Positions 13,472 to 62,749 of a stretch of 64,000 bases of DNA are shown here, piece by piece; position 1 is the stretch's first letter; the number at the start of each line of letters is the position of its first letter. The stretch comes from Magnetococcales bacterium. GTDB lineage: Bacteria; Pseudomonadota; Magnetococcia; Magnetococcales; UBA8363. Location of the stretch: assembly GCA_015228925.1 (NCBI GenBank), contig JADGCQ010000010.1, positions 1,128-65,127 of the forward strand, in the 5' to 3' direction. The translations under genes and the position numbers were made by a program. Under the pieces are notes generated by a model. The model was not told the DNA's origin and made no database searches. It saw only the letters and a list, made by a program, of their open reading frames with translations.

Positions 13472-13492
13472 AATGGCAGAGAATGTCGGCCC

Positions 13493-51600: not shown

Positions 51601-52972
51601 GATCAAGGGATTTCAATGGTTGCATCGATTGTCGGTTTGGGGGGTGGGAGGATGTTTGGCGGATGACATGGGGTTGGGCAAGACGTTGCAGGCGATGGCG
51701 TTATTGCTGCATCGCGCCCCGGATGGTGCTGGATTGGTGGTGGCCCCGACATCGGTATGTACCAATTGGGAGGCGGAAATCAAACGGTTTGCCCCCACCC
51801 TCAATCCGGTGATTTTGGGGGGGCCGAACCGTGCGGAACGGGTTTCGGGGTTGAAGGCGTTTGATGTTTTGATCGTGAGTTATGCCTTGCTCCAGATTGA
51901 AGAGGAACTGTTGGGGACGGTGATTTGGAACACCATTGTGTTGGATGAGGCGCAGGCGATTAAAAATCGGATGACCAAACGGTCTCGCGCCGCCATGGCG
52001 TTGCAGGGTCATTTTCGCTTGATGACCACGGGTACCCCCATCGAGAATCATCTGGGGGAATTATGGAATTTATTCCGTTTTTTAAATCCTGGTCTGTTGG
52101 GGTCGTTGGAGCGGTTTAACGAACGGTTTGCCATCCCCATTGAACGCTTTCGGGATCGGGAGGCGTCCCAGCGGTTGAAGACGCTGATTCGTCCTTTCAT
52201 TCTACGGCGGACGAAAAATCAGGTACTTCAGGAATTGCCGCCGTTGACGGAGATTGTGTTGCATGTGGAGATGGGACCGGAGGAGTCCGCCTTTTATGAA
52301 TCGTTGCGGCAGCGGGCCATGGCCGCTTTGGAGGGGGCGGATGATGCGGGAGATGGGCAGAATCATCTGGCGATTTTGGCGGAGTTAATGACTTTACGCC
52401 GTGCGTGTTGCAACAGTCGTCTGGTACAATCGAGTTTAGTATTGCCCAGTGCCAAGCTGGAGACATTCAAGGATGTGGCGCGGACGCTGTTGGACAATCG
52501 GCACAAGGCGTTGGTATTCAGTCAATTTGTCGGTCATTTGACCATTATTCGGGAATTCTTGGTGGCCGAGGGGATTTCATTTCAATATTTGGATGGCTCG
52601 ACCCCGGTGGCCAAGCGCAAGGAGAGTATCGACGCCTTTCAGAGCGGGGTGGGGGATTTCTTTTTGATCAGCCTCAAGGCGGGTGGGGTGGGGTTGAACC
52701 TGACGGCGGCGGATTATGTGATCCATATGGATCCCTGGTGGAATCCGGCGGTCGAGGATCAAGCCTCCAATCGGGCGCATCGGTTTGGCCAGAGGCGTCC
52801 GGTGACGGTATATCGGCTGGTGACCCGTGGGACCATCGAGGAGAAGATTGTTGAACTTCACGCGCAAAAACGCGATTTGGCCGATGATCTTTTGGAAGGG
52901 GGGGATATGAGTGGTCGTTTGAGTGCCGCCGAATTGTTGGGGCTGATCCGTATGCCGATGAACGGCGCATGA
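48644..52972 (+). CDS. SNF2-family ATPase/helicase with a ~950-aa uncharacterised N-terminal region
   Basis: 1442 aa, TTG start preceded by AAGGATGAAGGGG. C-terminal SNF2 motifs LREYQIKGFQWL, LADDMGLGKTLQA, LDEAQAIKN, LMTGTPIENHL, ALVFSQF, LISLKAGGVGLNLTAA, WWNPAVEDQASNRAHRFGQ. Confidence 0.88.
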   Translation: MSETPQASSILLSHLHGLSDPHRKILQLVAIAFDVIPASLVVACLKKLKIKQSNAGWFSVRTLQPYIESLIAMGLLKRDLDTGFHFRIVPTIADAAVLEAVADGVFADLMRVIEGELPSVLHSGGVGGMPRLLSFDRAVREIRLGLLTGDEERVFRFLGYAASQRSEEYRRNPPLVRLCAEPWDLERMAALPLGIQVKALEEMLTLALLNLDPVDGFGKLLEMHRHQPCAKNGPELRALYMIVLLIQGRLQEAVDLLANHKTRPVGAEIVFKGWIDFLKGKNRQAIATLDKMVLLLDDFRLMSKHNPFPYYWGGLFLLLGLLKQGKGEARQHVLNIVQRMERNPNNPLTSACQAMRAVALARGGDSDHALLILGYRAETAKEGLPWLRSEMVTPLMPVREGGWNPALPKAVFSWRADGLPELFRMMALYWIDHEVAAVAAVVAHVTAIHKRALAHDYPWVAMETAALLGRLTERDDCRETQEGLEKRLGFSCVTAQIQREERWEQTLSALMNLLGRGTDDSSGDSFLSGNRRLVWLIETHGHRGSIQAREQTLSDTGEWSRGKALSARRLHGAEIHNWGYLTPQDIKICAAIRQEYIYNGTRYDFDWAGAMLAMVGHPQVYWLDNPTTTIEVIRGEPELLVNEHNGRVRIRFAHKIEGPGVLVLREGERRCRVIEITGEHHKIADILGPEGFNGPETQKGRVMGVVARLANLVTIQSTVDVEADGEELAEVEVDSRPRLQLVPNGAGLSARLLVRPLGTSGPWSRPGKGSVVMFAERDGQRVKVRRDFQQEKRLVEELVGLCPALAGRSVDDWSWTLGKVEDCLELLAELQEAGDKVVVEWPEGERFRLANKVTMDRLQLKIRRERDWFAVSGTVTLDDALVLEMGQLLKITKAGGRFIPLGNGQFAALTEAFRKRLAEMLDMGEEGSKGWKVHALTSPWLKEMAGESGRVVGDKHWKEQVARLDAMESGDAAVPSTFQAELREYQIKGFQWLHRLSVWGVGGCLADDMGLGKTLQAMALLLHRAPDGAGLVVAPTSVCTNWEAEIKRFAPTLNPVILGGPNRAERVSGLKAFDVLIVSYALLQIEEELLGTVIWNTIVLDEAQAIKNRMTKRSRAAMALQGHFRLMTTGTPIENHLGELWNLFRFLNPGLLGSLERFNERFAIPIERFRDREASQRLKTLIRPFILRRTKNQVLQELPPLTEIVLHVEMGPEESAFYESLRQRAMAALEGADDAGDGQNHLAILAELMTLRRACCNSRLVQSSLVLPSAKLETFKDVARTLLDNRHKALVFSQFVGHLTIIREFLVAEGISFQYLDGSTPVAKRKESIDAFQSGVGDFFLISLKAGGVGLNLTAADYVIHMDPWWNPAVEDQASNRAHRFGQRRPVTVYRLVTRGTIEEKIVELHAQKRDLADDLLEGGDMSGRLSAAELLGLIRMPMNGA

Positions 52973-53004: not shown

Positions 53005-56000
53005 ATGGCTTATACATGGTTGCACCTTTCCGACATTCACATGGGATGCCGTGGAGAAGAAATCCGCAGACAGGTGGATGCGGAGTTTAAACCCCACCTT
53101 CAGAAGATGGTGAAACGGCTGGGGGCACCGGACATGATCCTGCTGACCGGGGATCTGGCCTTTAGTGGCAAGGAGGAGGAATACAAGCAGCTTGATGCGT
53201 TTTTGGCGGCACTGACAGGATGGATCAGGGAGATCCAGCCCGATGCCCCCCCGCCGATTTGGGTACCGGTGCCGGGCAACCATGATCTGGCTAGGCCCGA
53301 TAGAAATGATTTGGTCCTGGACTTTGCCAACTTGAAACAAGTAGCGGATGGGGATGAGTCTGTACGCCACGGTTTGGGCCAACGTTTTTTCTCGAAAAAA
53401 AATGTCCAGCTTATCGCCCCGCTGTTCCAGGCGTACCAGGATTGGTTTGCCCATAAGGTGAAACCGGGTTGGGAGGGCAGGGACTTTCATCTTTCCCATT
53501 TCCCCGGTGACTGGTGCCTGGAGTTGAACCTGCCGGACCGTTTTCCTTTGCGTCTGGTCGGTTTAAATTCTGCCTGGATGCATTTGGGAGACGGCTTTGC
53601 CCATCAAAAACTGGGGCTTTTCACCCAACAATTACAGGCAGCTTTGGGAGAGAATAAAAACCTGGAATTTGCCCAGGGACCAGCACTGTTATTGCTGCAC
53701 CATCCCCCCTTGACATGGTTTTCATCCAAAGCACTCACGCGGTTCAAGGAAGAAATATATACCCCAAAACGTTTTCACGCCTGCCTGTTTGGCCACATGC
53801 ATGATGAAAACACGACCGTGATCTTTGAGGCGGGCGGACCGCCACGCTATTATCTTCAAGCCCCCTCCCTGTTTGGTGTGGAAAAACTGGGTACTTCCCA
53901 AGAGGAACGTCGGTTTGGTTATGGTTGGGGTCGGGTGACGCAGGAGGGGGAAATTTTCACTTGGCCTTTTCTGCGGGGCAAACATGGCGGGGAGCAGCAA
54001 TTTATTTGGAACTCCAACTTTTCCGGCAATGTGGAAACCGGCCATCCGTTCCGAACCAAGATGCAAGCGGTCGCTACCGTGCCGACTGTCGATCTTAAAC
54101 CCTGGCTCCGTTCCCTTCACGACCGCACCAGACATATCAAGATCAGCGGCATCGGCTCCGGCGGTGGGAGTGGCAAGAATGCCAACCTTTATCCCATCGA
54201 GCAGCTTTACACGGTTCTGAAAAGTCGTGATGTTGTAGAGGGTGGTGATCCTCTTCGTGCCGAAGAGGTCAATCTGGCCGACCTGTTGCCCAGGTACCAG
54301 CGGTTGTTCATCGAGGGGCAGCCGGGGGCGGGCAAGACGACGTTTCTGTATCTGGCCGCCGCCATGTTGGCCAAGGATCTGTTGGGAGAGGCTGGCCCGC
54401 AAGGGGAATCCTGGCGTAAACGATATTTGGGGATGGATGACCGCCAGGAAGCACCGACCCCTCTTTTTCTAAAATTATCGGAGTTGGCGGCATGGCTGGC
54501 TGATCCTAAAACACCCCAAAAAGCGGACGACCGTTTTCGCTTGTTGGATTTCCTCCAGACCACAGCCGATGCCGGGAAAGAAGACGCTTGGCGGGAGCAT
54601 TGGCAATGGTTGTTGGATGCGGGACACGCCATTCTCCTCCTGGATGGTCTGGACGAGGTGGCGGACGAAAGGGTGCGCGAACGGGTATTCGCCATTTTTC
54701 AGAATGCGGCGACCCATTGGCAAAAAATCGCCATCATCGTCAGCAGCCGTCCCTTCGGTGCGGAGAGGCTCACCGCAATGGGTTTTCACCGAACGGTGAT
54801 CGAACCGTTTGGCGCAGTTCAGGTCCGGGAGTTCATCAACCGTTGGTCGGCGGCCCTGTATGGCCATGCCATTGGCGAGCAGCCCACCGGCGAAGCGGGT
54901 AAACATACCGAAACTTTGGAAAAGGCGATTCTTGACAAGCCCACCATCCGCAAGTTGGCCTCCAATCCCGTCATGTTGACCTGCCTGTGCGTGGTTCATT
55001 GGAACGAAGGGCAATTGCCGGAAGGGCGGACGCGGGTTTATAAGGCGGTAATCCGTTGGTTGCTGGGGAGTCGGGAAGAGCAACGAACCAAAGCGGGATG
55101 CACCAACCGTTTTGCCCTGGAGGCTTTTTCCGCCATTGCCTTGACCATGATGGGAAACAGCAAGGGTGATAAGAAGGCCATCTTCGATTTGGAAGAGGCA
55201 GCCGTCGCCGTCGAGTCGCTCCATGCACGCCATTTCCCGAAAGTCACGATGGACCGGCTGATTTTGGTTCGGGAATGGGTCCGTTTTGAGTGTTTGTATA
55301 GTGGCATTCTGGAGGAGACGAGCCGAAACCGTCTCCGTTTCTGGCATTTAACCTTCCAGGAATATTTGGCGGCGCAAAACTTGGCTTGGATGAGCGATGA
55401 CAAGGACAATGGCTGGTGGTCGGTTGTCAAAAACCGGCTGGAAAACGCCCAGTGGCGGGAGACGGTAGATTTGTTTCCGGGGGCATTGTTTGATGAGGGG
55501 GGCGGACGCCGGGTGGATGAGTTACTGACGCGGGTGCTGAAAAAATATCCCGGTAATGATTTGGCGCAGGATGCCCGCAAGGCCGGTATTTTGGGGCGGA
55601 TCCTGGAGCCGATGAGGGTGTATGAATATCAGCCCAAGCCGGAAATTCAAGCTCAGTACCGGGAGGTGCTGGACCGGGCTATGGACATCTTCGAGCCGAA
55701 GGGGGCGGCCAGAGTCCCTATTGCCGTGCGCCTTCCGGCGGCGGAGGCGTTGGGCCAGGGGGGAGATCCCCGTTTTACCGGGGATCGCTGGCGGGAAGAC
55801 CTGATCAAAGTCCCCGGCACAGCCATCGCCTTGGGAAAATATCCGGTGACGGTGCAGGAATACCAACGGTTTGTCGAGGATGGCGGTTATGACAATCCCG
55901 ATTATTGGCAGGAAGATCGCGCCTGGACTTTCCGCCAAGCTGAGAAATGGCAGGAACCGGATGAGTGGGCCAATCAGTTGGACCATCCCAACCGTCCGGT

Positions 56001-56469
56001 AGTGGGGGTCTGCTGGTATGAAGCGGCGGCTTATTGCGTGTGGCTCGGCAGGAATAAAGGTGTCAAGTTTTTCTTGCCCGAGGAGAAGGATTGGGAAACA
56101 GCCGCTACCCCTGCCCAAGGGGAATATCCCTGGGGTAAGCCGGGCCCGACCCCGGAGTTAGCCAACTATGGTGATGGCCAGATTGGCGCACCGACGCCGG
56201 TGGGTCTCTATCCCGTCGGCAATGGTCCCTACGGTCATTGTGATCTGGCGGGCAACGTTTGGGAATGGTGTGCTAGCCCGGGGGAGGGTGATGATGTGTC
56301 TGACGAGGAGATTCAAAAGTACGGACTACCGAAGGTGCTTAAGGGCGGGTCCTGGTACTACGCGGCTGGCGACCTCCGCGCTGCTGGGCGTAACGGGAGC
56401 CGTGCCGATTACCGCCTCGTCGGTCTGGGCTTTCGCGTCGCCGCCCCCGCCAGCATGATTGATCCTTGA
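53005..56469 (+). CDS. DGR target 1: metallophosphoesterase-NACHT/STAND NTPase-FGE-sulfatase (C-type-lectin fold) protein with C-terminal VR
   Basis: 1154 aa; no signal peptide seen. Calcineurin-like motifs LHLSDIHMG, LLTGDLAFSG, VPGNHD, LLLHHPP, LFGHMH. Walker A IEGQPGAGKTTFL (nt ~54316-54342), Walker B ILLLDGLDEV. C-terminal FGE fold PVVGVCWYEAAAYCVWLG, LAGNVWEWC, KGGSW...LGFRVAAP. The last 42 codons carry VR1. Confidence 0.85.
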   Translation: MAYTWLHLSDIHMGCRGEEIRRQVDAEFKPHLQKMVKRLGAPDMILLTGDLAFSGKEEEYKQLDAFLAALTGWIREIQPDAPPPIWVPVPGNHDLARPDRNDLVLDFANLKQVADGDESVRHGLGQRFFSKKNVQLIAPLFQAYQDWFAHKVKPGWEGRDFHLSHFPGDWCLELNLPDRFPLRLVGLNSAWMHLGDGFAHQKLGLFTQQLQAALGENKNLEFAQGPALLLLHHPPLTWFSSKALTRFKEEIYTPKRFHACLFGHMHDENTTVIFEAGGPPRYYLQAPSLFGVEKLGTSQEERRFGYGWGRVTQEGEIFTWPFLRGKHGGEQQFIWNSNFSGNVETGHPFRTKMQAVATVPTVDLKPWLRSLHDRTRHIKISGIGSGGGSGKNANLYPIEQLYTVLKSRDVVEGGDPLRAEEVNLADLLPRYQRLFIEGQPGAGKTTFLYLAAAMLAKDLLGEAGPQGESWRKRYLGMDDRQEAPTPLFLKLSELAAWLADPKTPQKADDRFRLLDFLQTTADAGKEDAWREHWQWLLDAGHAILLLDGLDEVADERVRERVFAIFQNAATHWQKIAIIVSSRPFGAERLTAMGFHRTVIEPFGAVQVREFINRWSAALYGHAIGEQPTGEAGKHTETLEKAILDKPTIRKLASNPVMLTCLCVVHWNEGQLPEGRTRVYKAVIRWLLGSREEQRTKAGCTNRFALEAFSAIALTMMGNSKGDKKAIFDLEEAAVAVESLHARHFPKVTMDRLILVREWVRFECLYSGILEETSRNRLRFWHLTFQEYLAAQNLAWMSDDKDNGWWSVVKNRLENAQWRETVDLFPGALFDEGGGRRVDELLTRVLKKYPGNDLAQDARKAGILGRILEPMRVYEYQPKPEIQAQYREVLDRAMDIFEPKGAARVPIAVRLPAAEALGQGGDPRFTGDRWREDLIKVPGTAIALGKYPVTVQEYQRFVEDGGYDNPDYWQEDRAWTFRQAEKWQEPDEWANQLDHPNRPVVGVCWYEAAAYCVWLGRNKGVKFFLPEEKDWETAATPAQGEYPWGKPGPTPELANYGDGQIGAPTPVGLYPVGNGPYGHCDLAGNVWEWCASPGEGDDVSDEEIQKYGLPKVLKGGSWYYAAGDLRAAGRNGSRADYRLVGLGFRVAAPASMIDP
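56343..56452 (+). repeat. DGR variable repeat VR1
   Basis: Gap-free match to TR 57794-57903 with 14 mismatches, all at TR adenines (hand alignment). Lies in the last 42 codons of the 53005-56469 CDS. Confidence 0.9.
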
Positions 56470-56498
56470 TTTTTTTGATTTTTGTCCTTTGTGGGGGT

Positions 56499-56519
56499 CC
56501 AGGGGGCGCAGCCCCCTGG
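56499..56519 (+). promoter_or_regulatory. GC hairpin 29 nt downstream of the VR1-gene stop (candidate DGR target-recognition hairpin/cruciform)
   Basis: CCAGGGGGC-gca-GCCCCCTGG: 9-bp perfect stem, 3-nt loop. The same element at the same spacing follows VR2. Confidence 0.7.
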
Positions 56520-56540
56520 TTTTGCAAAATGGCCTATTTT

Positions 56541-56652
56541 TGTCATTTTAGGGCTGTTTTTGTCATTTTGATTGACAGAATAGCGATATTTTATTAGATT
56601 TTGTCATTCTGGTGTCATTTTGACGATCATCGTGTCACTTTGAAAGTGACAC
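56541..56652. promoter_or_regulatory. array of TGTCA/TGACA half-sites and palindromes upstream of the DGR accessory genes
   Basis: TGTCA at 56541, 56602. TGTCA-N7-TGACA at 56561-56577. GTCA-TTT-TGAC at 56614-56624. 21-bp perfect palindrome GTGTCACTTT-G-AAAGTGACAC at 56632-56652, ending 1 nt before the annotated ATG. Confidence 0.6.
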
Positions 56653-56653
56653 A

Positions 56654-57346
56654 ATGACAAAGAACACGAGGGATTGTCATGTGAATCTGTCTCTGACCGA
56701 AGCGGCCATCGTCCTGGGGAAGACCCCTCGGCAGGTGCGCTATCTCATCAAGAACGGGACGCTGAAGGCGAAGAAGGAAAAGGGGTGCTGGGTCATCGAC
56801 AACGCCGATCTTCCCCTTTCCGCCGCCCAGCGTCAGGCGGTGGCCCGACGTGCCGAGACCGCACAGAATGCCATGGCCGAAGCCACCGAACCGCTGCGAA
56901 AAGCGGCATCCCCGGCCCCTTCCCCCGCAGAAACGAAAACCGCAGACGGCGAAAAAGAGAAAAAAGTCTATTCCGTCACCGATCTGAAGGCTTTTACCCT
57001 GGGAGCGGACATTTGCCGGGCGTTGGAAACGCATCTGGGCCGGGAGGATTCCGCCAGGCTTTGCCTTTTTGAAGCCCTGAAGAAGCTCTGCCGGGGGTGT
57101 CACGCCTTTCAACCGCCCCAAAAGGAGGCTCGTTTTACCGAGGCACGGGAGGCGGCAGCGGATGCGGTCGCCATCTTGCTCCTGGAAGGCGATGCCGATG
57201 ATCCCCAGCGCACCACCCTGGCCCGCCGCATTGAGACCGAACTGATCCCCAAGCTGGCGGCGTTGGCCGCTGGTCAGGAAAAACGGGCGCGCAAAAAACA
57301 GCAGGGGAGCCTCAGCGGCTTTTTCCCCGGCATGCTTGGGGAGTGA
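56654..57346 (+). CDS. helix-turn-helix (excisionase/MerR-like HTH) protein, DGR-associated
   Basis: 230 aa. N-terminal LSLTEAAIVLGKTPRQVRYLIKNGTLKAKKEKGCWVI resembles an HTH_17-type motif. Stop overlaps the avd start (GTGATG). An alternative GTG start at 56681 has GAGGGA upstream. A long antisense ORF is considered a GC shadow. Confidence 0.6.
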   Translation: MTKNTRDCHVNLSLTEAAIVLGKTPRQVRYLIKNGTLKAKKEKGCWVIDNADLPLSAAQRQAVARRAETAQNAMAEATEPLRKAASPAPSPAETKTADGEKEKKVYSVTDLKAFTLGADICRALETHLGREDSARLCLFEALKKLCRGCHAFQPPQKEARFTEAREAAADAVAILLLEGDADDPQRTTLARRIETELIPKLAALAAGQEKRARKKQQGSLSGFFPGMLGE

Positions 57347-57687
57347 TGCGACCCGCCCCCCTGTATGGCGACACCATGCGCCTCGCCGCCCTGATTCTTC
57401 GGTTGACCGAAACACCGACGTTCAGGCAGTCACCATTGGGGCGGCGCTTGCAGGATGGTGCGTTGCGTCTTGTGGATCATGTGGTGTTGGCGTTGGCCGG
57501 CCAGGACCGGCAACACCGCATCGCTGCCGCCGATGCCGAACTGCAAACCTTGCGTGCCCATTGTTTTCTCGCGCTTCAAATGGCCTTGATGGAGGAAGAT
57601 TCTTTTTTGATACTGGCCGAAGCGGCCCAAAAGGTGGGTCGGCAATTGGGTGGATGGATCAAAAAAGGGCGGGCTAAATCCGCTTGA
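57343..57687 (+). CDS. avd: DGR accessory variability determinant (Avd, four-helix-bundle family)
   Basis: 113-114 aa, basic and helical. C-terminus AEAAQKVGRQLGGWIKKGRAK resembles Bordetella phage bAvd AEVGRILGSWIARVNRKGQ. Located immediately upstream of TR and RT. Start is GTG 57343 or ATG 57346. Confidence 0.8.
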   Translation: MMRPAPLYGDTMRLAALILRLTETPTFRQSPLGRRLQDGALRLVDHVVLALAGQDRQHRIAAADAELQTLRAHCFLALQMALMEEDSFLILAEAAQKVGRQLGGWIKKGRAKSA

Positions 57688-57793
57688 CGCCGCAGAAAAC
57701 TTGCCTCCCAGGGGAGGGGCCGCTATTCTGAACTGGGGACGCTTCGAAACAAGAATTCCGCTATGGCTATGGACATCACCATGAACCCACAAG

Positions 57794-57903
57794 GGGCGGG
57801 TCCTGGAACAACGCGGCTGACAACCTCCGCGCTGCTAGGCGTAACAGGAACCATGCCGATAACCGCAACGACAATCTGGGCTTTCGCGTCGCCGCCCCCG
57901 CCA
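57794..57903 (+). repeat. DGR template repeat (TR)
   Basis: Non-coding copy of VR1/VR2 between avd and RT. 23 adenines in 110 nt; seven AAC codons when read in the VR frame (RGGSWNNAADNLRAARRNRNHADNRNDNLGFRVAAP). Confidence 0.9.
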
Positions 57904-57970
57904 ACACGCCGGACACATCCGCCGTGCAGAAGTGGCCCCGGTGCTTGCATTGTGCGCCGAAACATCCCAT

Positions 57971-58020
57971 GCCCGCCCGTTCTCGTAGGCAGCAGACGCC
58001 GAGCGTCCGGGCGGGCTTTT
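57971..58020 (+). other. GC-rich stem-loop plus T-tract in the TR-RT spacer
   Basis: GCCCGCCCG (57971-57979) pairs with CGGGCGGGC (58008-58016). Inner GACGC/GCGTC pair (57995-57999 / 58003-58007). Followed by TTTT (58017-58020), 15 nt before the RT ATG. Confidence 0.55.
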
Positions 58021-58034
58021 TCGCCTTTGTGACC

Positions 58035-59027
58035 ATGCGTCGCTTTGGCAATCTGTTTGTGGAGGTCGCCTCGACGAACAATCTTTGGCGGGCCTGGCAG
58101 GACTTTTCCAAAGGAAAACGCCAGCGCATCACGGTGGCTGATTTTGTATGGCAAGCACCCCAGGAAGTTGTGTCTCTGCACCAGCAATTGATGGCGGAGA
58201 ACTATCGCCCCCAGGGCTATCGTCTGAAAATGATTCATGAACCCAAACACCGCCTGGTGGCGGCAGCTCCGGTGTGTGACCGAATCGTCCATCATGCCAT
58301 CTATCGAATTCTCTCACCGCTTTTGGATCCAGGGTTGATCCGGGAGACCTGGGCCTGTCTGCAAGGGCGCGGCAGCCATCGGGCGCAAATCGCCTGTGTG
58401 GGGGCCATGCGGAATTATCCCTGGCGGATGGCCCTGGATATACGCCATTACTTTCCCAGTATTGATCACGCCATTCTTCTGGAGGAGGTCATGGCGCGGC
58501 GTATCAAGGACCGGCGTCTGCTCGAACTGCTCAGGAAAATCTGTCGCAGTGGTGCTGGACTCTATCGGCATCCGGGGATTGGGGAATTTTTGGATTTTCC
58601 CCCTGGTTTTCCCCCGGATGGATGTGGTCTGCCCATTGGCAATCTGACCAGTCAGTGGCAGGCCAATCACTATCTTTCGGGATTGGATCACCATGCCAAA
58701 CGGGTTCTTGGGGTTCCCGCCTACCATCGGTACATGGATGACATGGTTTTTTTCGCCCATTCCAAAAGCCAGTTGCAGGAGACCCGTGACGCCGTGGCCC
58801 AATGGCTTTGGGTGTATCGGCGTCTGAAATTGAAACATCCCAACGCCGCCATCCGTTCCACCAAGCAACCCATGACCTGGCTGGGCAAACGCATTTCCAC
58901 CGCCGGTATCAACCCAAGTCGGCGGCAGATTCGCAAAATGCAGTGTCGGATGACAACCCTGGTCCGTCAGGGGGATGAGGAGACCATCCGCCATGCCGTT
59001 GCCTCCTATCGCGGAGTGCTGTTGTAA
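58035..59027 (+). CDS. DGR reverse transcriptase
   Basis: 330 aa from MRRFGNLFVEVASTNNLWRAWQDFSKGKRQR. RT motifs include LPIGNLTSQWQANHYL (the I/LGxxxSQ signature of DGR RTs) and catalytic YHRYMDDMVFF. Start set at ATG 58035, downstream of TR; the track ORF begins at 57924, 21 nt downstream of TR. Confidence 0.88.
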   Translation: MRRFGNLFVEVASTNNLWRAWQDFSKGKRQRITVADFVWQAPQEVVSLHQQLMAENYRPQGYRLKMIHEPKHRLVAAAPVCDRIVHHAIYRILSPLLDPGLIRETWACLQGRGSHRAQIACVGAMRNYPWRMALDIRHYFPSIDHAILLEEVMARRIKDRRLLELLRKICRSGAGLYRHPGIGEFLDFPPGFPPDGCGLPIGNLTSQWQANHYLSGLDHHAKRVLGVPAYHRYMDDMVFFAHSKSQLQETRDAVAQWLWVYRRLKLKHPNAAIRSTKQPMTWLGKRISTAGINPSRRQIRKMQCRMTTLVRQGDEETIRHAVASYRGVLL

Positions 59028-59035
59028 GGGAAGAT

Positions 59036-59155
59036 TGACAAAGTGTCATTTATAAGGTGACGTTTTGTCAGTTTGTCACTTTTCAAATGACACTTTGTCC
59101 ATTTGAATGGACAAAATTGGATGTAAAACGACCTGATTGTCACTTTAAATGACAA
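59036..59155. promoter_or_regulatory. second array of TGTCA/TGACA palindromes downstream of the RT gene
   Basis: TGACA-AAG-TGTCA 59036-59048. TGAC-N5-GTCA 59058-59070. TGTCA-N9-TGACA 59074-59092. TTGTCCAT-TTGA-ATGGACAA 59095-59114. TTGTCA-N7-TGACAA 59137-59155. Confidence 0.6.
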
Positions 59156-59185
59156 AAAACGGCTATTTTTGGTCATTTTGCAAAG

Positions 59186-59206
59186 CCAGGGGGCTACGCC
59201 CCCTGG
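59186..59206 (-). promoter_or_regulatory. GC hairpin 29 nt downstream of the VR2-gene stop
   Basis: On the coding (minus) strand: CCAGGGGGC-gta-GCCCCCTGG. Mirror image of the 56499-56519 element. Confidence 0.7.
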
Positions 59207-59235
59207 ACCCCCACAAAGGACAAAAACCAAAAAAA

Positions 59236-62200
59236 TCAAGGATCAACCATGCTGGCGGGGGCGGCGACGCGAAAGCCCAGAAAGACGTAGCGGTTATCGG
59301 CATGGCTCCAGTTACGCCCAGCAGCGCGGAGGCTGTCAGCCGCGAAGCCCCAGGACCCGCCCCTGATAGGATGAACATCTCGATCACCTTTGGTGATAAC
59401 GGGATCCTGGGTTGGCACCGCGCCAGTGCGTTTTTTATAAGCCTTCTCATCCCAAATATCTCGGCACCATTCCCAGACGTTGCCGGCCAGATCGAGATGG
59501 CCGAAAGGACCACGGCCAGCGGGATATTGTCCCACCAGTTCCGGCTTCCCTTTTTGCCCGTCCAAGCCAAAACAGGCCAACTCCTTCGTTGGTTTTTTAT
59601 CGCCGTCCCAGGGATAAACGCGACCATCGCTTCCCCGTGCGGCATATTCCCATTGCGCCTCGCTGGGTAGAAGAATGGGACTCCCGGACTCTTTGCTGAG
59701 CCATGCGCAAAAGGCCATGGCATCGTTCCAATCCACACCTACTACCGGCTGCTCTGGATCCGAGAATCTTTGGTCGCGCCAATACTCAGGTTCTTTGTGT
59801 TTTACCGCTTTGAGAAAAAGTCCATACTGTTGGTTGGTCACTGGTGTTTCCGCCAATAGGAACGGCGAGAGTTTCACCCGATGCTCCGGTTTTTCATAAC
59901 TGTTTCCTTTGTTGTCTCCCATGGTGAAAATGCCACCGGGTACCGGCAACAGCCGTAGCCCCGGCAAAGGCTCCAGAATTTTCGTTGCCGTGATCTCTCG
60001 GCCATGAACGGCGTTGACCAGGGCTTTTGCCCCCGCTGCCAGGGAGGAACGGGCATCGACCATTACGGTCCCCAGTGGTGCGGGGAGCTTGGGTGCCGCC
60101 GGGCTATCCGGCGTGAACACTGTGATCAGGCGGCAGTCGCTGGCCAGATAGTGCAACCCCTCTTCACATTCGGCGTCGGTAAACAGACGGTCTTCAGCAC
60201 CGAGCAGAAAGGCAACGGCCCCGACCTTGGCCCGAATCGGATCCAGGTATTGCAGCCATTCGTTGGAGACCCATTCCCGCGCCGTTTTCGGCCAGACATG
60301 CACCCCCGCATCGGCCAGGAGAGGGGCCAATTGTTCGGCGAAGGTCTCCCTATCGGCATCATGGATCAGTAGCAGGTCATAGTCTTTGCCACCCGCTTCG
60401 CCCAACAGCCCCTGTGCCAGCCTGGAGACGTTTTCATCTGTATGTTGTTTCAGCCCCTCCGCAGCCGCTAGAACGGCGGTATCGGTCACCCCCTTGAGTA
60501 GCCGCAGAATCGCCGTCAGGTGTCCCACCGACGTTTTTTTATCCTGTAGTGCCTTGGCAAAAACAGAATAATCGGTCTGTTCCGCCTCGGTCAGCATATC
60601 CCGCATCAGATTGGCGCGGTCTCCCTTGAGAATATCCGGCAACAGCCGCGTCATGAACGGCGCGAATAGTTGATGGTCTGGGATCCCCACCAATAACAAC
60701 AACACCTCGCGCCACCATTTTTCATCCCCCTGACTTGCCAGAAAGTCCAAGAGCGTTTCGTCCGACGACGCCATCACCACATGCCGCGCCGCCAGATATT
60801 CCTGCAACCCCAGATGCATGAAGCCATACTGATTGGGTGCATATTCGATGAAAACGCCCGTATCGCGGTGGAGCCACTCCAAAATTTGGAGTCCCGTGGG
60901 TCTGTTTTTTTGACTGGGCAAGCATTTTTCAGCAAAATTGGCAAATTCCAGCCGTTTGACATTATCGCGGCGGTTTTCCTGGTGAAGTTTCCAGGCCAGG
61001 GGGCGCAGGATGTCCAGGGCTGTTTTTACATCCAGGAGTGGTTCACCCCCAGTTTGCTCCCGACGCCATTTGCCCAATAGGATTTCCAGGCATCGTTGAT
61101 AAAACGCCGCCCGTTTTTTGGGAATTTCTCCCACCCGGAGTACCACTACACACAACAGGGTGAGCAACAGTGGGTTGCCCATCAACACCTTGATGCGTTG
61201 GTCGGAAAAATTATTCTCATCCATGGCTTTGAGGAGGCGCAGGGAACGGGCTTTGGCTTCATTAGCCAAGTCGGGTACGAGATATTGGCCAGCCTCATCG
61301 AACCAAACTTTGACGAATTCCTCGACCTGTTCACCATCCAGGGGTTTGACATCCAGGGGAAAGAAATTTTCCAGCCGCACCCCATCCCCATATCCGGTAA
61401 AACGACAAGAGACGGCGGCGTAGATCTGCTGGTTTTGTAAACCGACCAGACCATCGTTGATTCGTTTTGCCACTTTGGCCCGCAGGTTGGAGTCGGCGAT
61501 TTCATCCAAGCCGTCGAAGAGGAGCAACAGCTTGCCATCTTTCCAATAATCCCGGCCTAGTTCTTTTGGGAAACGCCCGGCGGAAAGATCTCCTAATTCT
61601 TTGTCGATGAAGGATTGGAGGGGTATATGCAGATATTCTTCGCTAAAATGGCGCAGACGCAAAAAGACCGGCATCAACCCTTCCGGTAACCCCAAAGAGT
61701 GCGACCCTTGGATGAGGCAATGGTGCAGCATTTTTTTAAGCGAGGTCGTTTTGCCCGCACCCGGTTCACCAAACAACACCACGCACTGCCGCAAGCCGCC
61801 GTCCGCATTTTTGAAAGCCTCTTCCAGTTTGACATCACCAGCACTTTGCTGCCACGCCTCCTCGGCTATGCGCCCCCGACGCTCTTTCAGATCAACCCCA
61901 AAGGCGCGTTGCGAGATGCGCAACGGCACATAGACTTCATTTAAATCTAGGGAAATATCACCACCATCCACCCCCAACAACGACAACCGGCCAAATTTCT
62001 CCAGTGCCCAGGTGGAATAGCCATCTTTCCCGGTGTTTGCAATCTTTTCCTCCACGGGTGGAGGCTGCTTGGCCAGTTCTCGGATACGTTGGGACAGTTC
62101 CAGAAATTTTCTTTTCCTTTCTACAGGTTGCAATTCCTCCAATGTTTTGCCTGGTGTTCCGAATCCTTGAAACTCGGTCAGTTTTATCTGGGAAGTGGTG

Positions 62201-62574
62201 CCACTGTCTGGGTGAATAAAAGAAATCTCGCCGACGGATGATGGTGATAAAAACACGGGAAGGATCGTGAGTCGTCCCTGTTCACTCGCGGAAAGAATAG
62301 GAGGAAGTTCATATGTTTTAATAAAATGAGAGGCTAGAAAAATTTCCGAGATAAACAAAATGGCTGTTTGTGTTTGGCGCAGTGCTTCCTCTATCTCTTT
62401 GCGCCATTTGTCTCCTGCTTTGATGTCTTGATCTACCCAAACTCGGGCAACTCCGTCAGCCTCCAAAGTTTGTTTGAAAGGGAGAAACTCTCGCAGCACT
62501 TCTTCATCCGCGTGACTATAGCTGATAAAAACTTTTGATCTTTGCACGACTTTCATCCATTCAATTTGGGTCAC
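59236..62574 (-). CDS. DGR target 2: TIR-NACHT/STAND NTPase-FGE-sulfatase (C-type-lectin fold) protein with C-terminal VR
   Basis: 1112 aa; no signal peptide seen. N-terminal TIR-like KVFISYSHADEEVLREFLPF...VWVDQDIKAGDKWRKEIEEAL...AILFISEIFLAS. Walker A LFGEPGAGKTTSL (nt ~61744-61773), Walker B LLLLFDGLDEI. C-terminal FGE fold PVVGVDWNDAMAFCAWLS, LAGNVWEWC, RGGSW...LGFRVAAP. Start is GTG 62574 or ATG 62556. Confidence 0.85.
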   Translation of the reverse strand: MTQIEWMKVVQRSKVFISYSHADEEVLREFLPFKQTLEADGVARVWVDQDIKAGDKWRKEIEEALRQTQTAILFISEIFLASHFIKTYELPPILSASEQGRLTILPVFLSPSSVGEISFIHPDSGTTSQIKLTEFQGFGTPGKTLEELQPVERKRKFLELSQRIRELAKQPPPVEEKIANTGKDGYSTWALEKFGRLSLLGVDGGDISLDLNEVYVPLRISQRAFGVDLKERRGRIAEEAWQQSAGDVKLEEAFKNADGGLRQCVVLFGEPGAGKTTSLKKMLHHCLIQGSHSLGLPEGLMPVFLRLRHFSEEYLHIPLQSFIDKELGDLSAGRFPKELGRDYWKDGKLLLLFDGLDEIADSNLRAKVAKRINDGLVGLQNQQIYAAVSCRFTGYGDGVRLENFFPLDVKPLDGEQVEEFVKVWFDEAGQYLVPDLANEAKARSLRLLKAMDENNFSDQRIKVLMGNPLLLTLLCVVVLRVGEIPKKRAAFYQRCLEILLGKWRREQTGGEPLLDVKTALDILRPLAWKLHQENRRDNVKRLEFANFAEKCLPSQKNRPTGLQILEWLHRDTGVFIEYAPNQYGFMHLGLQEYLAARHVVMASSDETLLDFLASQGDEKWWREVLLLLVGIPDHQLFAPFMTRLLPDILKGDRANLMRDMLTEAEQTDYSVFAKALQDKKTSVGHLTAILRLLKGVTDTAVLAAAEGLKQHTDENVSRLAQGLLGEAGGKDYDLLLIHDADRETFAEQLAPLLADAGVHVWPKTAREWVSNEWLQYLDPIRAKVGAVAFLLGAEDRLFTDAECEEGLHYLASDCRLITVFTPDSPAAPKLPAPLGTVMVDARSSLAAGAKALVNAVHGREITATKILEPLPGLRLLPVPGGIFTMGDNKGNSYEKPEHRVKLSPFLLAETPVTNQQYGLFLKAVKHKEPEYWRDQRFSDPEQPVVGVDWNDAMAFCAWLSKESGSPILLPSEAQWEYAARGSDGRVYPWDGDKKPTKELACFGLDGQKGKPELVGQYPAGRGPFGHLDLAGNVWEWCRDIWDEKAYKKRTGAVPTQDPVITKGDRDVHPIRGGSWGFAADSLRAAGRNWSHADNRYVFLGFRVAAPASMVDP
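59253..59362 (-). repeat. DGR variable repeat VR2
   Basis: The reverse complement matches TR 57794-57903 without gaps. 12 mismatches, all at TR adenines. Lies in the last 42 codons of the 59236-62574 CDS. Confidence 0.9.
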
Positions 62575-62673: not shown

Positions 62674-62749
62674 TGGTGAGCCGTGTTGGAGTCGAACCAA
62701 CGACCCACAGATTAAAAGTCTGTTGCTCTACCGACTGAGCTAACGGCCC
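62674..62749 (-). tRNA. tRNA-Lys (anticodon UUU)
   Basis: The reverse complement reads GGGCCGTTAGCTCAGTCGGTAGAGCAACAGACTTTTAATCTGTGGGTCGTTGGTTCGACTCCAACACGGCTCACCA. 7-bp acceptor stem, D-loop AGCTCAGTCGGTAGAGC, anticodon loop CTTTTAA, T-arm GTTGG-TTCGACT-CCAAC, encoded CCA. Confidence 0.92.

Follow-up and report, generated by a model that had tools for sequence, protein, structure and literature searches.

A Magnetococcales diversity-generating retroelement with two NLR-like target proteins predicted to be cytoplasmic

Introduction

What would a diversity-generating retroelement (DGR) diversify inside a cell? The question is raised by a locus of a magnetotactic Magnetococcales bacterium, analyzed here in a 64-kb window, the whole stretch of DNA under study. 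Judged from its sequence, the locus is a chromosomal, complete DGR. The cassette runs in the order HTH gene, Avd, 117-nt template repeat (TR) and reverse transcriptase (RT), and sits between two convergent target genes, T1 and T2. Both targets are soluble, NLR-like proteins in three parts: an enzymatic effector at the N-terminus, a NACHT module as the ATPase switch, and at the C-terminus a non-catalytic C-type-lectin (CLec) fold of FGE type. We consider a hypervariable intracellular NLR-like sensor to be the best reading of the locus, and a reasonably probable one. The label 'immune receptor' is drawn from the architecture of T1 and T2 by analogy.

Results

Architecture and localization of the targets

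Pfam, AF2 and Foldseek were used to delimit the domains of both proteins. T1 (53005..56469, + strand; ORF of 1154 aa) consists of a metallophosphoesterase, a NACHT NTPase, a helical linker and an FGE-type CLec fold ending in variable repeat 1 (VR1). T2 (59236..62574, - strand; ORF of 1112 aa) consists of a TIR domain, NACHT, helical domains, an internal TIR-like domain and an FGE-type CLec fold ending in VR2. The original prediction had named both ORFs, 53005-56469(+) and 59236-62574(-), and had proposed the effector-NACHT-FGE/CLec layout, which the Pfam NACHT, TIR, metallophosphatase and FGE profiles all match. The Walker A (GQPGAGKTTFL, GEPGAGKTTSL) and Walker B (LLLDGLDEV, LLFDGLDEI) motifs it quoted occur verbatim in the translations, and the AF2 models (mean pLDDT 87.7 for T1 and 78.8 for T2) resemble animal NLR NACHT modules and TvpA/FGE folds.

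The T1 effector is a calcineurin-like metallophosphoesterase (aa 6-267; 53020..53805, + strand; Pfam Metallophos 40.9 bits, cutoff 21.5), and YydB metallophosphoesterase is among the Foldseek matches of T1. Its sequence matches are weak, the closest being the class III phosphodiesterases Rv0805, Icc and GpdQ (E 5e-4 to 1e-3), followed by Mre11/SbcD. The T2 effector is a TIR domain (aa 15-111; 62242..62532, - strand; Pfam TIR_2 71.9 bits). Both effectors look catalytically competent, because the metallophosphoesterase motif residues D50, GNHD 91-94, H232 and H264/H266 are conserved in 74 homologues, with D10/H12 nearly invariant, and E89 of the TIR domain matches the Glu of the AbTIR NADase 'YEL' motif in a PDB alignment to 8g83/7uwg. 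Past the NACHT helical region and ahead of the sensor, T2 has a second, internal TIR-like domain (aa ~731-834; 60073..60384, - strand), identified by profile-profile matching and AF2. Its Pfam TIR_2 match is under the cutoff (E 0.004); it aligns with the N-terminal TIR domain at a profile-profile probability of 99.0% (E 4e-18), and alternates strand and helix in the AF2 model (pLDDT 70-84).

The best PADLOC and NCBIfam matches of both effectors are anti-phage models: NCBIfam 'DS8 anti-phage protein' and PADLOC PDC-S60 for the N-terminal part of T1, and PADLOC ThsB/SAVED-TIR/PDC-S66 for the T2 TIR domain. DS9 is also among the models matched by the N-terminal domains. In these two collections both proteins stay below the curated cutoffs of all validated anti-phage families, with NCBIfam EruA at 23-26 bits where 1000 are required, and PADLOC matched nothing in the NACHT or sensor parts.

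The T1 NACHT core (aa 433-615; 54301..54849, + strand) was identified by Pfam, Foldseek and invariant residues. It scores 27.3 bits with NPHP3_N/NACHT (above 24.8) and 24.2 with NACHT itself, slightly below 26.7. It carries Walker A GQPGAGKT and Walker B LLLDGLDE, followed after the core by a winged-helix 'FWHLTFQEYLAA' motif (aa ~779-790); residues G438/G441/G443/K444, D547, E551, R582 and H781 are invariant in the homologue alignment. Foldseek matches it to NLRC4/NLRP3/NOD2 with E values of 1e-12 to 1e-10. The T2 core (aa 264-427; 61294..61785, - strand; Pfam NACHT 28.5 bits, above cutoff) has Walker A GEPGAGKT, Walker B LLFDGLDE and, past the core, 'FMHLGLQEYLAA' at aa ~585-596. It too has invariant columns in its homologue alignment, and the same three NLRs are among its Foldseek matches. 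In both target families the Walker A/B motifs of NLR type, the sensor-1 Arg and the His motif of the winged helix are invariant; the NACHT modules of T1 and T2 are only 27% identical and their CLec domains 40%.

Both sensors are FGE-sulfatase/C-type-lectin-fold domains by Pfam (T1 aa 942-1146; 55828..56442, + strand, 129 bits; T2 aa 876-1104; 59263..59949, - strand, 178.5 bits). Foldseek matched T1 to EgtB/ToxD and T2 to PvdO/FGE/TvpA, the T2 sensor superimposing on TvpA with a TM score of 0.71 normalized to TvpA and an rmsd of 3.0. The PDB sequence matches of the T1 sensor include Treponema denticola TvpA (2y3c). The FGE catalytic cysteine pair is absent from the T2 sensor in alignments to Streptomyces coelicolor FGE and TvpA, and in the FGE alignment the matching stretch is the hypervariable region. 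Lacking these cysteines, and with its VR aligned to the C-terminal stretch of TvpA, the sensor looks like a binder, not an enzyme. T1 is 100% identical to a named protein of a Magnetococcales MAG, and its source record calls it a 'SUMF1/EgtB/PvdO family nonheme iron enzyme'; the name holds for the fold alone and misleads about function.

The fold that the C-terminal domain shares with TvpA raises the possibility that T1 and T2 are surface-displayed ligand binders like the classical DGR targets Mtd, TvpA and LdtA. However, hydrophobicity scans and AF2 revealed no N-terminal hydrophobic segment, signal peptide, lipobox or transmembrane helix in either protein, in agreement with the cytoplasmic location claimed originally. 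The sole strongly hydrophobic 19-mer, T2 461-481 (GNPLLLTLLCVVV), is a conserved NACHT helical motif that is present in T1 too. The AF2 models begin straight at the first strand of the cytosolic enzyme domains, and the ATPase and NAD+-dependent domains need cytosolic substrates. We find surface display very improbable, and predict that T1 and T2 are cytoplasmic.

The DGR cassette and its repeats

An HTH_17/excisionase-like accessory gene of 230 aa (56654..57346, + strand) opens the DGR operon. Pfam HTH_17 matches it under the cutoff (E 3e-4), and PHROG 66 'excisionase and transcriptional regulator' matches with E 2e-5. Its stop codon is overlapped by the start of Avd, the accessory variability determinant (57346..57687, + strand; ~113 aa), which matches PHROG 3206 'Avd protein of DGR' (E 2e-10) and, under the cutoffs, NCBIfam DivGenRetAVD (42.6 bits) and Pfam bAvd (35.8 bits). 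The TR (57792..57908, + strand; 26 adenines) is separated by a 126-nt spacer (57909-58034) from the RT (58035..59027, + strand; 330 aa, with LPIGNLTSQ and YMDD), which was identified by Pfam RVT_1, PADLOC RT (123 bits) and PHROG 1423 (E 2e-83). The RT ORF opens at 57924; the homologues are 330 aa long and align from residue ~35-38, and the start codon is likely M38.

Repeat comparison placed VR1 at T1 aa ~1113-1151 (56341..56457, + strand; 87% identical to TR) and VR2 at T2 aa ~1071-1109 (59248..59364, - strand; 89%). Over the 113-nt TR core (57794-57906, 25 adenines), VR1 has 15 mismatches to TR and VR2 has 13. All 28/28 fall on TR adenines, as expected from the DGR hypermutation of both targets that had been proposed. 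The remaining bases contribute 0 mismatches in the 226 compared core positions, which implies recent templating; the chance probabilities of the adenine-only pattern are 1.8e-12 and 1.4e-10. The last ~40 residues of each target are the VR, as stated in the original prediction; its count of 12 variable codons was off by one in each case, 13 codons being changed in VR1 and 11 in VR2.

In the TR core, 15 codons have an A as their first or second base, none of them mutable to a stop codon, and the TR retains stop-free, AAC-rich coding. The theoretical repertoire is ~5.9e12 peptides per VR. The last differing codon, AAC in TR, is AGC in the VRs; because G is found in 4/4 VRs examined, this is probably a fixed IMH/IMH* difference. 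Among 98 homologues, entropy is 3.2-3.9 bits at 11/14 TR-adenine-codon positions and 2.3-2.9 at the remaining three, with near-invariant G, W, L, R and GFR positions interleaved. By these alignments the VR region is hypervariable across the whole homologue family.

Each VR is followed by a GC-rich hairpin. The first, CCAGGGGGC-GCA-GCCCCCTGG (56499..56519, + strand), lies 30 nt past the T1 stop codon and has a 9-bp stem (z = -2.7); the second (59186..59206, - strand; z = -3.8) has the same stem with a loop one base different. Both are contained in a 207-nt inverted repeat (88%) common to the 3' ends of T1 and T2, and this 3' flank is far better conserved between the targets than their coding sequence. 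The first hairpin is a putative retrohoming target-recognition element and/or terminator.

Motif counts revealed two TGTCAY arrays flanking the cassette. The left array (56541..56651, no strand) includes a perfect palindrome, TGTCACTTTGAAAGTGACA, at 56633-56651, and overlaps a sigma-70-like promoter (56572-56600, promoter scan) just upstream of the HTH gene. The right TGTCAY/RTGACA palindrome array (59044..59156, no strand) follows the RT stop codon and precedes the VR2-side hairpin. Of the matches to exact TGTCAYTTT in the window, 7/8 lie in the two cassette flanks (1.5 expected in the whole window), and the flank palindrome has 5 matches against 0.05 expected.

Distribution and loss among relatives

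The same cassette, with the HTH gene and flanking palindrome arrays, occurs in four Magnetococcales genomes, this one and three others. The relative L019 has an ORF for a closely similar protein at the HTH position, L023 and L024 have genes of 223 and 234 aa there, and all three have the hairpin stem with different loops. The RT lineage and the target families co-occur on contigs. Among homologues the NACHT-FGE portion is constant and the N-terminal domain is swapped (Metallophos, TIR, SEFIR, SIR2, DUF4062, Mrr, CHAT, kinase). A convergent pair of one TIR-type and one phosphoesterase-type gene is kept even in distant metagenomes.

In relatives at ~90% nucleotide identity the entire HTH-Avd-TR-RT cassette is gone. 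One of these (L014) has T2 split by a CAG-to-TAG nonsense change; in another (L018) T1 is largely uncalled and T2 is truncated. With the cassette lost and the targets damaged in such close relatives, the system is therefore dispensable, and it may be costly. The same losses would fit a recently silenced, decaying DGR, in which the adenine pattern is a fossil and the genes are now ordinary fixed receptors heading for loss. The VRs of L019 and L014 show non-adenine differences too, and metagenome scans for VR variants found none. However, the present locus has all its components intact. The RT has YMDD, Avd, TR and the two hairpins are in place, and T1 and T2 are full-length. The VR cores carry adenine changes exclusively, and the TR is still free of stops. 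Decay is in our judgment unlikely.

VR sequences also differ between close relatives, as would be expected if the targets served kin or self/non-self recognition instead of anti-phage defense. In the manner of fungal HET/NLR incompatibility determinants, T1 and T2 would sense proteins that come from non-kin cells or from incoming conjugative DNA, and would then kill the recipient. The architecture is identical to that of fungal NACHT incompatibility proteins, a cell with two receptors diversified independently would carry a strain-specific 'barcode', and Doré et al. (PMC10907252) raise the same alternative. However, the sensors appear cytoplasmic by hydrophobicity and AF2, a receptor that changes stochastically inside a clone is a poor kin label, and effector swapping with a TIR/SIR2/DUF4062 repertoire is typical of anti-MGE systems. 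Known Magnetococcales are single cocci that are not known to mix their cytoplasm, and this too counts against kin recognition, to which we assign a low probability.

The neighborhood of the locus is housekeeping by profile searches (MetX, HisG, HtpG, DapF, tRNA-Lys), and no defense island was recognized around it, the single exception being a SNF2 helicase with at most a putative role. Such surroundings would suit non-immune signaling. The pair would then be an NTP-gated sensor whose ligand, for example a glycan or metabolite, is endogenous or comes from the environment; the TIR domain and the phosphodiesterase would tune a nucleotide second messenger, and the cell would not be killed. The weak resemblance of the T1 effector to cyclic-nucleotide and glycerophospho-diesterases points the same way, and the conserved convergent TIR/phosphoesterase pair could reflect a synthesis/degradation couple. 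Yet ~1e12-fold hypervariation is useless to a fixed-ligand sensor, and the anti-phage models noted above are the best matches of both effectors. Nucleases, SIR2, proteases and kinases freely take the place of the N-terminal domains, an argument for toxic outputs that can be exchanged for one another. A signaling role seems improbable to us.

Discussion

We favor a hypervariable intracellular NLR-like sensor, and its mechanism can be proposed by analogy. The mutagenesis steps follow Bordetella phage BPP-1 and Legionella DGR biology. An RT-Avd complex would copy TR RNA into cDNA, misincorporating opposite adenines, and the mutated cDNA would replace VR1 or VR2. Two elements would direct retrohoming: the GC-rich homology (GTCGCCGCCCCCGCC...) that both 3' ends share, and the conserved hairpin that follows each VR. 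The activation steps are modeled on NLR, Avs and bNACHT proteins. In the cytoplasm, the variable face of the lectin fold would bind an invader-derived macromolecule, and binding would free the NACHT module from an ADP-bound autoinhibited state. T1 or T2 would oligomerize, and clustering would switch on the N-terminal effector. The output of T2 would be TIR-mediated NAD+ cleavage or NAD-derived signaling, the binuclear-metal phosphoesterase of T1 would attack nucleotides or nucleic acid, and the infected cell would undergo growth arrest or death. If this is true, the DGR lets the lineage re-aim both receptors at new invaders with the scaffold unchanged. How a randomly diversified cytoplasmic receptor with toxic effectors avoids autoimmunity is a puzzle for the mechanism.

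The bNACHT/Avs proteins share with T1 and T2 the order of effector, NACHT/STAND switch and C-terminal sensor, and the use of TIR and other NAD+/nucleic-acid effectors. In characterized bNACHT/Avs proteins the sensor is a TPR or helical domain, fixed in the germline, and recognizes conserved phage proteins, whereas the sensor here is a lectin fold rewritten by a retroelement. T1 and T2 have no significant match to the curated bNACHT/Avs models of PADLOC and NCBIfam.

The Mtd, TvpA and LdtA systems resemble this one in their adenine-specific mutagenesis from TR to VR and in having Avd and RT, a 3' end that is GC-rich and IMH-like, a downstream hairpin after the VR, and a CLec/FGE fold whose C-terminal face carries the VR. 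TvpA matches the target sensors directly, both in sequence and in structure. Bordetella phage Mtd, TvpA and Legionella LdtA are secreted or surface-displayed binders with neither NTPase nor enzymatic effector. In contrast, T1 and T2 are large, predicted cytoplasmic signaling proteins. T1 and T2 also share the fold of the formylglycine-generating enzyme/EgtB/PvdO family and match Pfam FGE-sulfatase strongly, but the catalytic cysteine pair of FGE is lacking here.

Known Magnetococcales are unicellular cocci. In contrast, the thesis of Doré et al. (2024, PNAS; PMC10907252) ties such DGRs to multicellular hosts. In Thiohalocapsa PB-PSB1 (DGR 3 and DGR 6) and other bacteria they described 'clade 5D' DGRs whose two targets are STAND-CLec proteins, in some cases with an N-terminal TIR, predicted the targets to be cytoplasmic, proposed that they are antigen sensors, and showed natural VR diversification in PB-PSB1 by metagenomics. 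Clade 5D and this locus are alike in having two targets, each with a single CLec and a central STAND/NACHT NTPase, a likeness of locus architecture. In PB-PSB1 the N-termini of the targets are EAD8 adaptors or unknown, and the protease effectors are separate; here both effectors are fused. The accessible parts of their text and supplements contain neither a metallophosphoesterase nor Magnetococcales.

Kaur, Iyer, Burroughs and Aravind (2021, eLife 10:e70394; PMC8195603) reported STAND (NACHT clade)-FGS proteins with N-terminal TIR or calcineurin effectors, in at least two copies per genome with different effectors. A DGR is linked to these genes in cis or trans, with the RT and a four-helix accessory protein adjacent or elsewhere. 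The authors called these intracellular proteins analogues of the hypermutating receptors of adaptive immunity. The architecture and hypothesis are the same as here; theirs is a survey, and this specific locus is not in it.

The original prediction allowed for such surveys, and rightly held that no locus of this kind had been functionally characterized; our literature search found no experimental paper on this or any homologous locus. Its reading of an intracellular, NTPase-gated DGR receptor is supported, but it overrated the novelty of that reading, the identical hypothesis of a hypervariable intracellular receptor having been published (PMC8195603, PMC10907252). Within the literature searched, nothing was found on a Magnetococcales host, an HTH protein with palindrome arrays, an internal TIR-like domain or a conserved convergent TIR/phosphoesterase pairing. 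New here are the Magnetococcales host, the HTH protein and palindrome arrays that flank the cassette in four genomes, the internal TIR-like domain of T2, the TIR-type/phosphoesterase-type pair conserved in distant metagenomes, and the loss of the cassette with damaged targets in close relatives.

A complete DGR between two convergent genes

The locus at 53005-62574 was predicted to hold a diversity-generating retroelement (DGR) together with two genes bearing its variable repeats, and the ORFs, Pfam matches and adenine pattern of the repeats confirmed this. The two target genes are convergent. T1 (53005-56469, + strand) encodes 1154 aa and T2 (59236-62574, - strand) encodes 1112 aa, with three smaller ORFs between them, all on the + strand. 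The first is an HTH_17-like gene (56654-57346). The second (57346-57687) encodes the accessory protein Avd, recognized by the PHROG 'Avd protein of DGR' (E 2e-10); its scores fell below the cutoffs of both curated models, Pfam bAvd (35.8 bits vs 40) and NCBIfam Avd (42.6 vs 80). The third, open from 57924 with a probable start at 58035 (330 aa), is a reverse transcriptase (RT) that matches RVT_1 and PHROG 1423 (E 2e-83). The hallmarks of DGR RTs, [I/L/V]GxxxSQ and YxDD, are present in it as LPIGNLTSQ and YMDD, next to the template repeat (TR; 57792-57908, + strand, 117 nt). TR lies between Avd and RT and ends 126 nt before the probable RT start.

VR1 (56341-56457, + strand) is a copy of TR at the 3' end of T1, and VR2 (59248-59364, - strand) is an inverted copy at the 3' end of T2. 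VR1 departs from TR at 15 positions of the 113-nt core and VR2 at 13, and 28/28 of these differences fall on TR adenines (hypergeometric P = 1.8e-12 and 1.4e-10, respectively). The window contains no non-adenine mismatch between TR and either VR, which argues for recent templating. It thereby tells against a decaying element; that the element is decaying or silenced is, in our estimate, unlikely.

In TR, A occupies position 1 or 2 of 15 codons, most of them AAC, and mutation cannot turn any of these into a stop codon. The last adenine codon (AAC -> AGC) carries G in 4/4 VRs examined and is probably an IMH/IMH* difference; with this codon left out, the repertoire is ~5.9e12 peptides per VR. Each VR sits at the 3' end of its target within a CLec/FGE fold, has a GC-rich IMH-like end and is followed by a hairpin. 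The locus is thus a structurally complete DGR with every component apparently intact.

Two pattern scans of JGI metagenome contigs, one using VR/TR with N at the adenine sites and the other the IMH-proximal constant part, returned no VR variants. An RT search of GTDB representative genomes gave only RTs of 26-36% identity, in unrelated MAGs. The nearest named RT homologues belong to Magnetococcales, Nannocystis, Thermoanaerobaculia and Planctomycetota.

Architecture and location of the target proteins

T1 and T2 are cytoplasmic NACHT proteins built of three parts, and the variation at the tip of each lectin fold is adenine-specific and templated by TR. The proposed layout of effector, NACHT and FGE domain was recovered in both genes with Pfam (Metallophos or TIR_2, NACHT/NPHP3_N and FGE-sulfatase), and the Walker motifs quoted in the original prediction occur verbatim in the ORFs. 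AlphaFold2 models were built on family alignments and reached a mean pLDDT of 87.7 for T1 and 78.8 for T2.

The central module of T1 (aa 433-615) scored 27.3 bits with NPHP3_N (cutoff 24.8) and 24.2 bits with NACHT, under the cutoff of 26.7, while that of T2 (aa 264-427) scored 28.5 bits with NACHT (cutoff 26.7). In Foldseek searches of the PDB both central modules aligned over 570-770 columns with NLRC4, NLRP3 and NOD2 (E 1e-16 to 1e-10), in line with an NBD-HD1-WHD-HD2 fold. T1 and T2 each carry Walker A together with an acidic, extended Walker B, and both motifs are conserved in the two families. In the family alignments the P-loop Lys is invariant for T1 and at least 90% conserved for T2, and the Walker B Asp/Glu and sensor-1 Arg are invariant or nearly so. 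A winged-helix motif was located in T1 (FWHLTFQEYLAA, H781 invariant) and in T2 (FMHLGLQEYLAA, H587 invariant). The His of this F(W/M)HL..QEYLAA pattern (FxHxxxQE[FY]LAA) is that of the ADP-contacting winged-helix motif of animal NLRs. T1 and T2 are old paralogues, 27% identical in their NACHT modules and 40% in their lectin-fold domains. The curated anti-phage STAND models (Avs1-5, named bNACHTs and EruA) gave no PADLOC match to the NACHT or sensor regions, and the targets scored 23-26 bits with NCBIfam EruA, which has a cutoff of 1000.

The C-terminal FGE-sulfatase domains span aa 942-1146 in T1 and aa 876-1104 in T2 (Pfam). A C-type-lectin-fold sensor had been proposed, and Foldseek agrees, matching the C-termini to PvdO, FGE and EgtB and to the DGR variable protein TvpA (2y3c; TM 0.71 normalised to TvpA, rmsd 3.0 A). 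The database name of T1 is 'SUMF1/EgtB/PvdO nonheme iron enzyme'. True FGE enzymology was rejected since the catalytic cysteine pair (CxxxxC) is missing: when T2 is aligned to S. coelicolor FGE, the 'LCHDSYC' segment is either lost or exchanged for GFAAD, and there is no Cys in VR1, VR2 or the TR-encoded peptide. This segment coincides with the position of the VR, which aligns with the C-terminal stretch of TvpA. With the cysteine pair gone and the VR in its place, the sensor is a binding scaffold and not an enzyme.

Hydrophobicity analysis found no hydrophobic N-terminus or credible transmembrane helix in T1 or T2, as the original prediction had it. The sole hydrophobic peak of T2 is the NACHT 'GNPLLLTLLC' helix, common to T1, and in both AlphaFold2 models the chain starts directly in strand one of the effector domain. 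Surface display was therefore rejected, and we regard it as extremely improbable. That the DGR targets NACHT proteins is almost certain.

Effector domains

The N-terminus of T1 (aa 6-267) matches Pfam Metallophos with 40.9 bits (cutoff 21.5). The metal-binding motifs DxH, GD, GNH[DE], H and GH are present as LSDIH, TGDLA, GNHD, HHPP and GHMH and are invariant or nearly so among 74 homologues. Foldseek matched this region in the PDB to YydB chain 9a6c_B, which we take to be a metallophosphoesterase. The N-terminus of T2 (aa 15-111) matches Pfam TIR_2 with 71.9 bits. Its E89 falls on the catalytic glutamate in the 'YEL' motif of AbTIR, an NADase. Judged by these motifs, which are intact in both, the two effectors appear to be active.

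Between its NACHT helical region and its lectin-fold sensor, T2 has a second, internal TIR-like domain (60073-60384, - strand; aa ~731-834). Whole-protein Foldseek was unable to single it out, and it was resolved by profile-profile comparison, in which hhalign against the N-terminal TIR gave 99% probability and E 4e-18; Pfam gave E 0.004. The AlphaFold2 model has an alternating strand/helix pattern over this domain, which is conserved throughout the TIR-NACHT-FGE family, and in the alignment one of its Glu residues matches the catalytic Glu of the N-terminal domain.

T1 and RT have exact matches in the protein collection, at 100% identity to proteins from a Magnetococcales MAG. Intact T2 is absent from it (best match 92% identity, 85% coverage), and the source annotation may have treated T2 as a pseudogene or given it another start. 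The in-frame ATG at Met7, 18 nt past the GTG, could plausibly serve as the start instead.

Flanking hairpins, motif arrays and the HTH gene

The 3' ends of T1 and T2 share a 207-nt inverted repeat (88% identity) made up of the VR and ~90 nt of 3' flank. Each flank contains a hairpin with a 9-bp GC stem, at 56499-56519 (+ strand, z = -2.7) beside VR1 and at 59186-59206 (- strand, z = -3.8) beside VR2. The stem is kept, with differing loop bases, in three other genomes (four in all). Since retrohoming is unable to homogenise sequence outside TR, conservation of the flank points to a function in cis, which by analogy would be target recognition. We liken the hairpin flank to the target-recognition elements of Bordetella phage and Legionella DGRs. 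The TR-RT spacer folded no better than shuffled sequences (z = -0.9), and an Rfam scan of the locus found nothing relevant besides a tRNA-Lys.

The spacers between the cassette (HTH gene, Avd, TR and RT) and the hairpins of VR1 (56541-56651) and VR2 (59044-59156) are filled with TGTCAY motifs and TGTCAC-N7-GTGACA palindromes, and 7/8 exact TGTCAYTTT matches in the 64-kb window sit in these two spacers. The motif is enriched 20-40-fold in 4/4 cassette-bearing Magnetococcales genomes; in the three relatives the arrays lie at 13412-13827 and 16357-16567 (L019), 7405-7603 and 9961-10089 (L023), and 4412-4653 and 7114-7348 (L024). In the four genomes the arrays co-occur with a ~225-aa HTH_17/excisionase-like gene, and they were not found in relatives that lack the cassette. 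The left array overlaps a promoter-like site ahead of the HTH gene. The arrays are probably bound by the HTH protein. Read conservatively, such binding would control the DGR operon, and any part played at the retrohoming sites is speculation. The literature searched contained no description of such arrays with an HTH gene as a DGR accessory feature.

Distribution of the cassette and of the target pair

At 35-50% identity there are >100 Metallophos-NACHT-FGE and >50 TIR-NACHT-FGE proteins. Both families have members in Magnetococcales, Nannocystis/Polyangiaceae, Thermoanaerobaculia, Acidobacteriota and many metagenomic contigs, with the N-terminal domain swapped among Metallophos, TIR, SEFIR, SIR2, DUF4062, Mrr, CHAT, ParA-like and kinase domains. 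Across 98 homologues, 11/14 TR-adenine-codon positions have a residue entropy of 3.2-3.9 bits and the other 3 one of 2.3-2.9 bits, with hardly any variation at the Gly, Trp, Leu, Arg and GFR positions between them, a pattern that reads as a family-wide DGR signature. RT homologues (50-85% identity) apparently lie on the same contigs as target homologues in at least 10 cases.

The same cassette arrangement (target, ~225-aa HTH, Avd, TR, RT, convergent target) was found in three more Magnetococcales genomes (L019/L020, L023 and L024), where the flanking genes differ each time and target identity and order vary. The right-hand DGR target of L023 (10090-12511) is a 451-aa TIR-FGE protein that lacks NACHT, followed by a 272-aa FGE fragment; the arrangement represents target degradation or else a minimal 'TIR-sensor' variant.

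Two relatives of ~90% nucleotide identity, L014 (4909-5544 and 8458-8468) and L018 (9642-16908), lack the cassette. Synteny of an SNF2-family helicase gene, T1 and T2 is kept in both, and a 636-bp segment encoding a coiled-coil ORF stands in place of the whole 2.7-kb cassette. A CAG-to-TAG mutation in L014 separates the TIR from the remainder of T2. In L018, T1 is called only as a 246-aa FGE fragment, and T2, without its TIR, borders on a truncated Mu-like prophage. The VRs of these relatives differ from the window TR at adenine sites and at 9-10 other sites, a pattern compatible with another TR or with drift once the DGR was lost. The view that the cassette is a mobile element bounded by the palindrome arrays was not supported, as the replacement in L014 also removes the T1 hairpin and has no recognisable ends.

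Two more distant loci of ~40% identity, L021 (9001-16086) and L022 (9001-16378), have TIR-type and Metallophos-type NACHT-FGE genes tail to tail, 300-650 bp apart. VR-region nucleotide identity within the pair is 82% over 126 nt in L021 and 86% over the last 37 nt in L022, and no RT or TR was found within 9 kb. The conserved unit is here the pairing of TIR and phosphoesterase effectors and not a DGR in cis. This convergent pairing, ranging from Magnetococcales to the ~40%-identical metagenomic lineages, is conserved across phyla with or without a DGR in cis.

A local TR was likewise not found within 9-10 kb of these two loci, of the homologous protein P0003 (L015) or of the Nannocystis protein P0085 (L017); if these targets are still diversified, TR would have to act in trans. 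In L017 (10001-22527 of Nannocystis punicea CP114040.1) three FGE-fold genes are clustered beside an integrase. Two of them, both of the Metallophos-NACHT-FGE type, are convergent and have a 38-nt 3' end in common (97% identical); the third lies by a MoxR-like ATPase. With no RT within 10 kb, they are probably trans targets of a remote DGR.

Genomic setting

The window is chromosomal and includes MetX, HisG, HtpG, a carboxylase, two-component kinases and DapF. The tRNA-Lys(UUU) gene (62674-62749, - strand) lies 100 nt past the T2 start. Synteny with L014 stops at ~62601, and the tRNA gene may thus lie at the boundary of a recombined segment or island. The SNF2-family helicase (48644-52972, + strand, 1442 aa) ends 32 nt ahead of T1. 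It has strong PADLOC DpdE/ZorD-type matches, mainly in the helicase region (residues ~660-1440), and a ~940-aa N-terminal region with no Pfam match. It was rejected as a component of the system, being syntenic only in L014 and L018 and absent beside the cassette in L019, L023 and L024. Three other long ORFs, 7912-10647 (911 aa), 11606-13471 (621 aa) and 22678-24450 (590 aa), all on the + strand, have no Pfam match at E <= 1e-5.

Proposed function and comparison with known systems

Following established DGR biology, RT-Avd would copy TR RNA into adenine-mutagenised cDNA, which would replace VR1 or VR2 under the guidance of the GC-rich 3' homology and the hairpin. Following NLR, Avs and bNACHT biology, a ligand at the variable face would relieve NACHT autoinhibition. 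Oligomerisation would cluster and activate the TIR, leading to NAD+ cleavage or signalling, and would activate the phosphoesterase, leading to hydrolysis of nucleotides or nucleic acid, and the infected cell would be aborted. We consider such a DGR-diversified, NLR-like immune sensor pair a reasonably probable explanation of the whole locus. Its uncertainty lies in the immune-function part, where two other readings apply: the receptors could serve kin recognition or allorecognition, which we think quite unlikely, or the effectors could act in non-lethal nucleotide signalling, which seems equally improbable.

The locus may be more than a DGR with two independent receptors. The TIR-type and phosphoesterase-type proteins may be an obligate, co-evolving pair, and the two effectors might work on one nucleotide pathway, the TIR making or consuming an NAD-derived molecule that the class-III-like phosphodiesterase destroys or processes. 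If so, there would be a threshold shielding a randomly diversified cytoplasmic receptor from autoimmunity. The HTH protein, in turn, may bind the TGTCAC-N7-GTGACA arrays beside both VR hairpins, so that diversification itself would be regulated through DGR transcription, through marking of both retrohoming sites, or both. The joint reading, an obligate effector pair with regulated diversification, is unlikely.

Should DGR-diversified NLR-like proteins really detect invaders, prokaryotes would possess a receptor system in which targeted hypermutation runs ahead of the antigens. Beyond phage tail fibres and the adaptive immunity of vertebrates, such anticipation has been proposed and never demonstrated. 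The 9.6-kb locus unites two full-length targets, each with its effector fused, with the regulator, Avd, TR, RT and both cis hairpins. Being compact, with every part apparently intact, it is a reasonable candidate for synthesis and reconstitution, and a clean one for a first functional test of such receptors, although a specialist would not find it surprising. For comparison, nature supplies 'cassette-minus' loci in the related genomes. The proposed link between such DGRs and multicellularity can be checked against the host order. To our knowledge, described Magnetococcales are single cocci, and an order that is unicellular as far as its described members go would be a data point against a strict link.

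The immune-receptor interpretation is supported as a hypothesis and is identical to the published one. The finding is a correct rediscovery of a kind of system already known and still hypothetical, and its conceptual claim is already in Kaur et al. 2021 and Doré et al. 2024. New here are the TGTCAY arrays, the internal TIR-like domain, the conserved effector pairing, the Magnetococcales host and the cassette-minus relatives with damaged targets. A literature search found no functional study of such loci, in keeping with the original prediction. A 2026 preprint describes STAND clades with FGE-sulfatase sensors as defence-associated and does not mention DGRs.

Kaur et al. 2021 (PMC8195603) described N-terminal effectors, including TIR and calcineurin, joined to a NACHT-clade NTPase, with multiple copies bearing distinct effectors and with an RT and four-helix accessory protein nearby or elsewhere, and likened these proteins, as potential analogues, to the vertebrate receptors that hypermutate. 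Doré et al. 2024 (PMC10907252) demonstrated natural VR diversification in Thiohalocapsa and noted that CLec-STAND proteins are experimentally uncharacterised; in the portions of its text and supplements available to us, Magnetococcales, metallophosphoesterase and Nannocystis are not mentioned. Its clade 5D comprises DGRs with two STAND-CLec targets, some with TIR and mostly cytoplasmic. The present locus resembles clade 5D in target layout, in that each of the two targets has one CLec domain and a central STAND NTPase.
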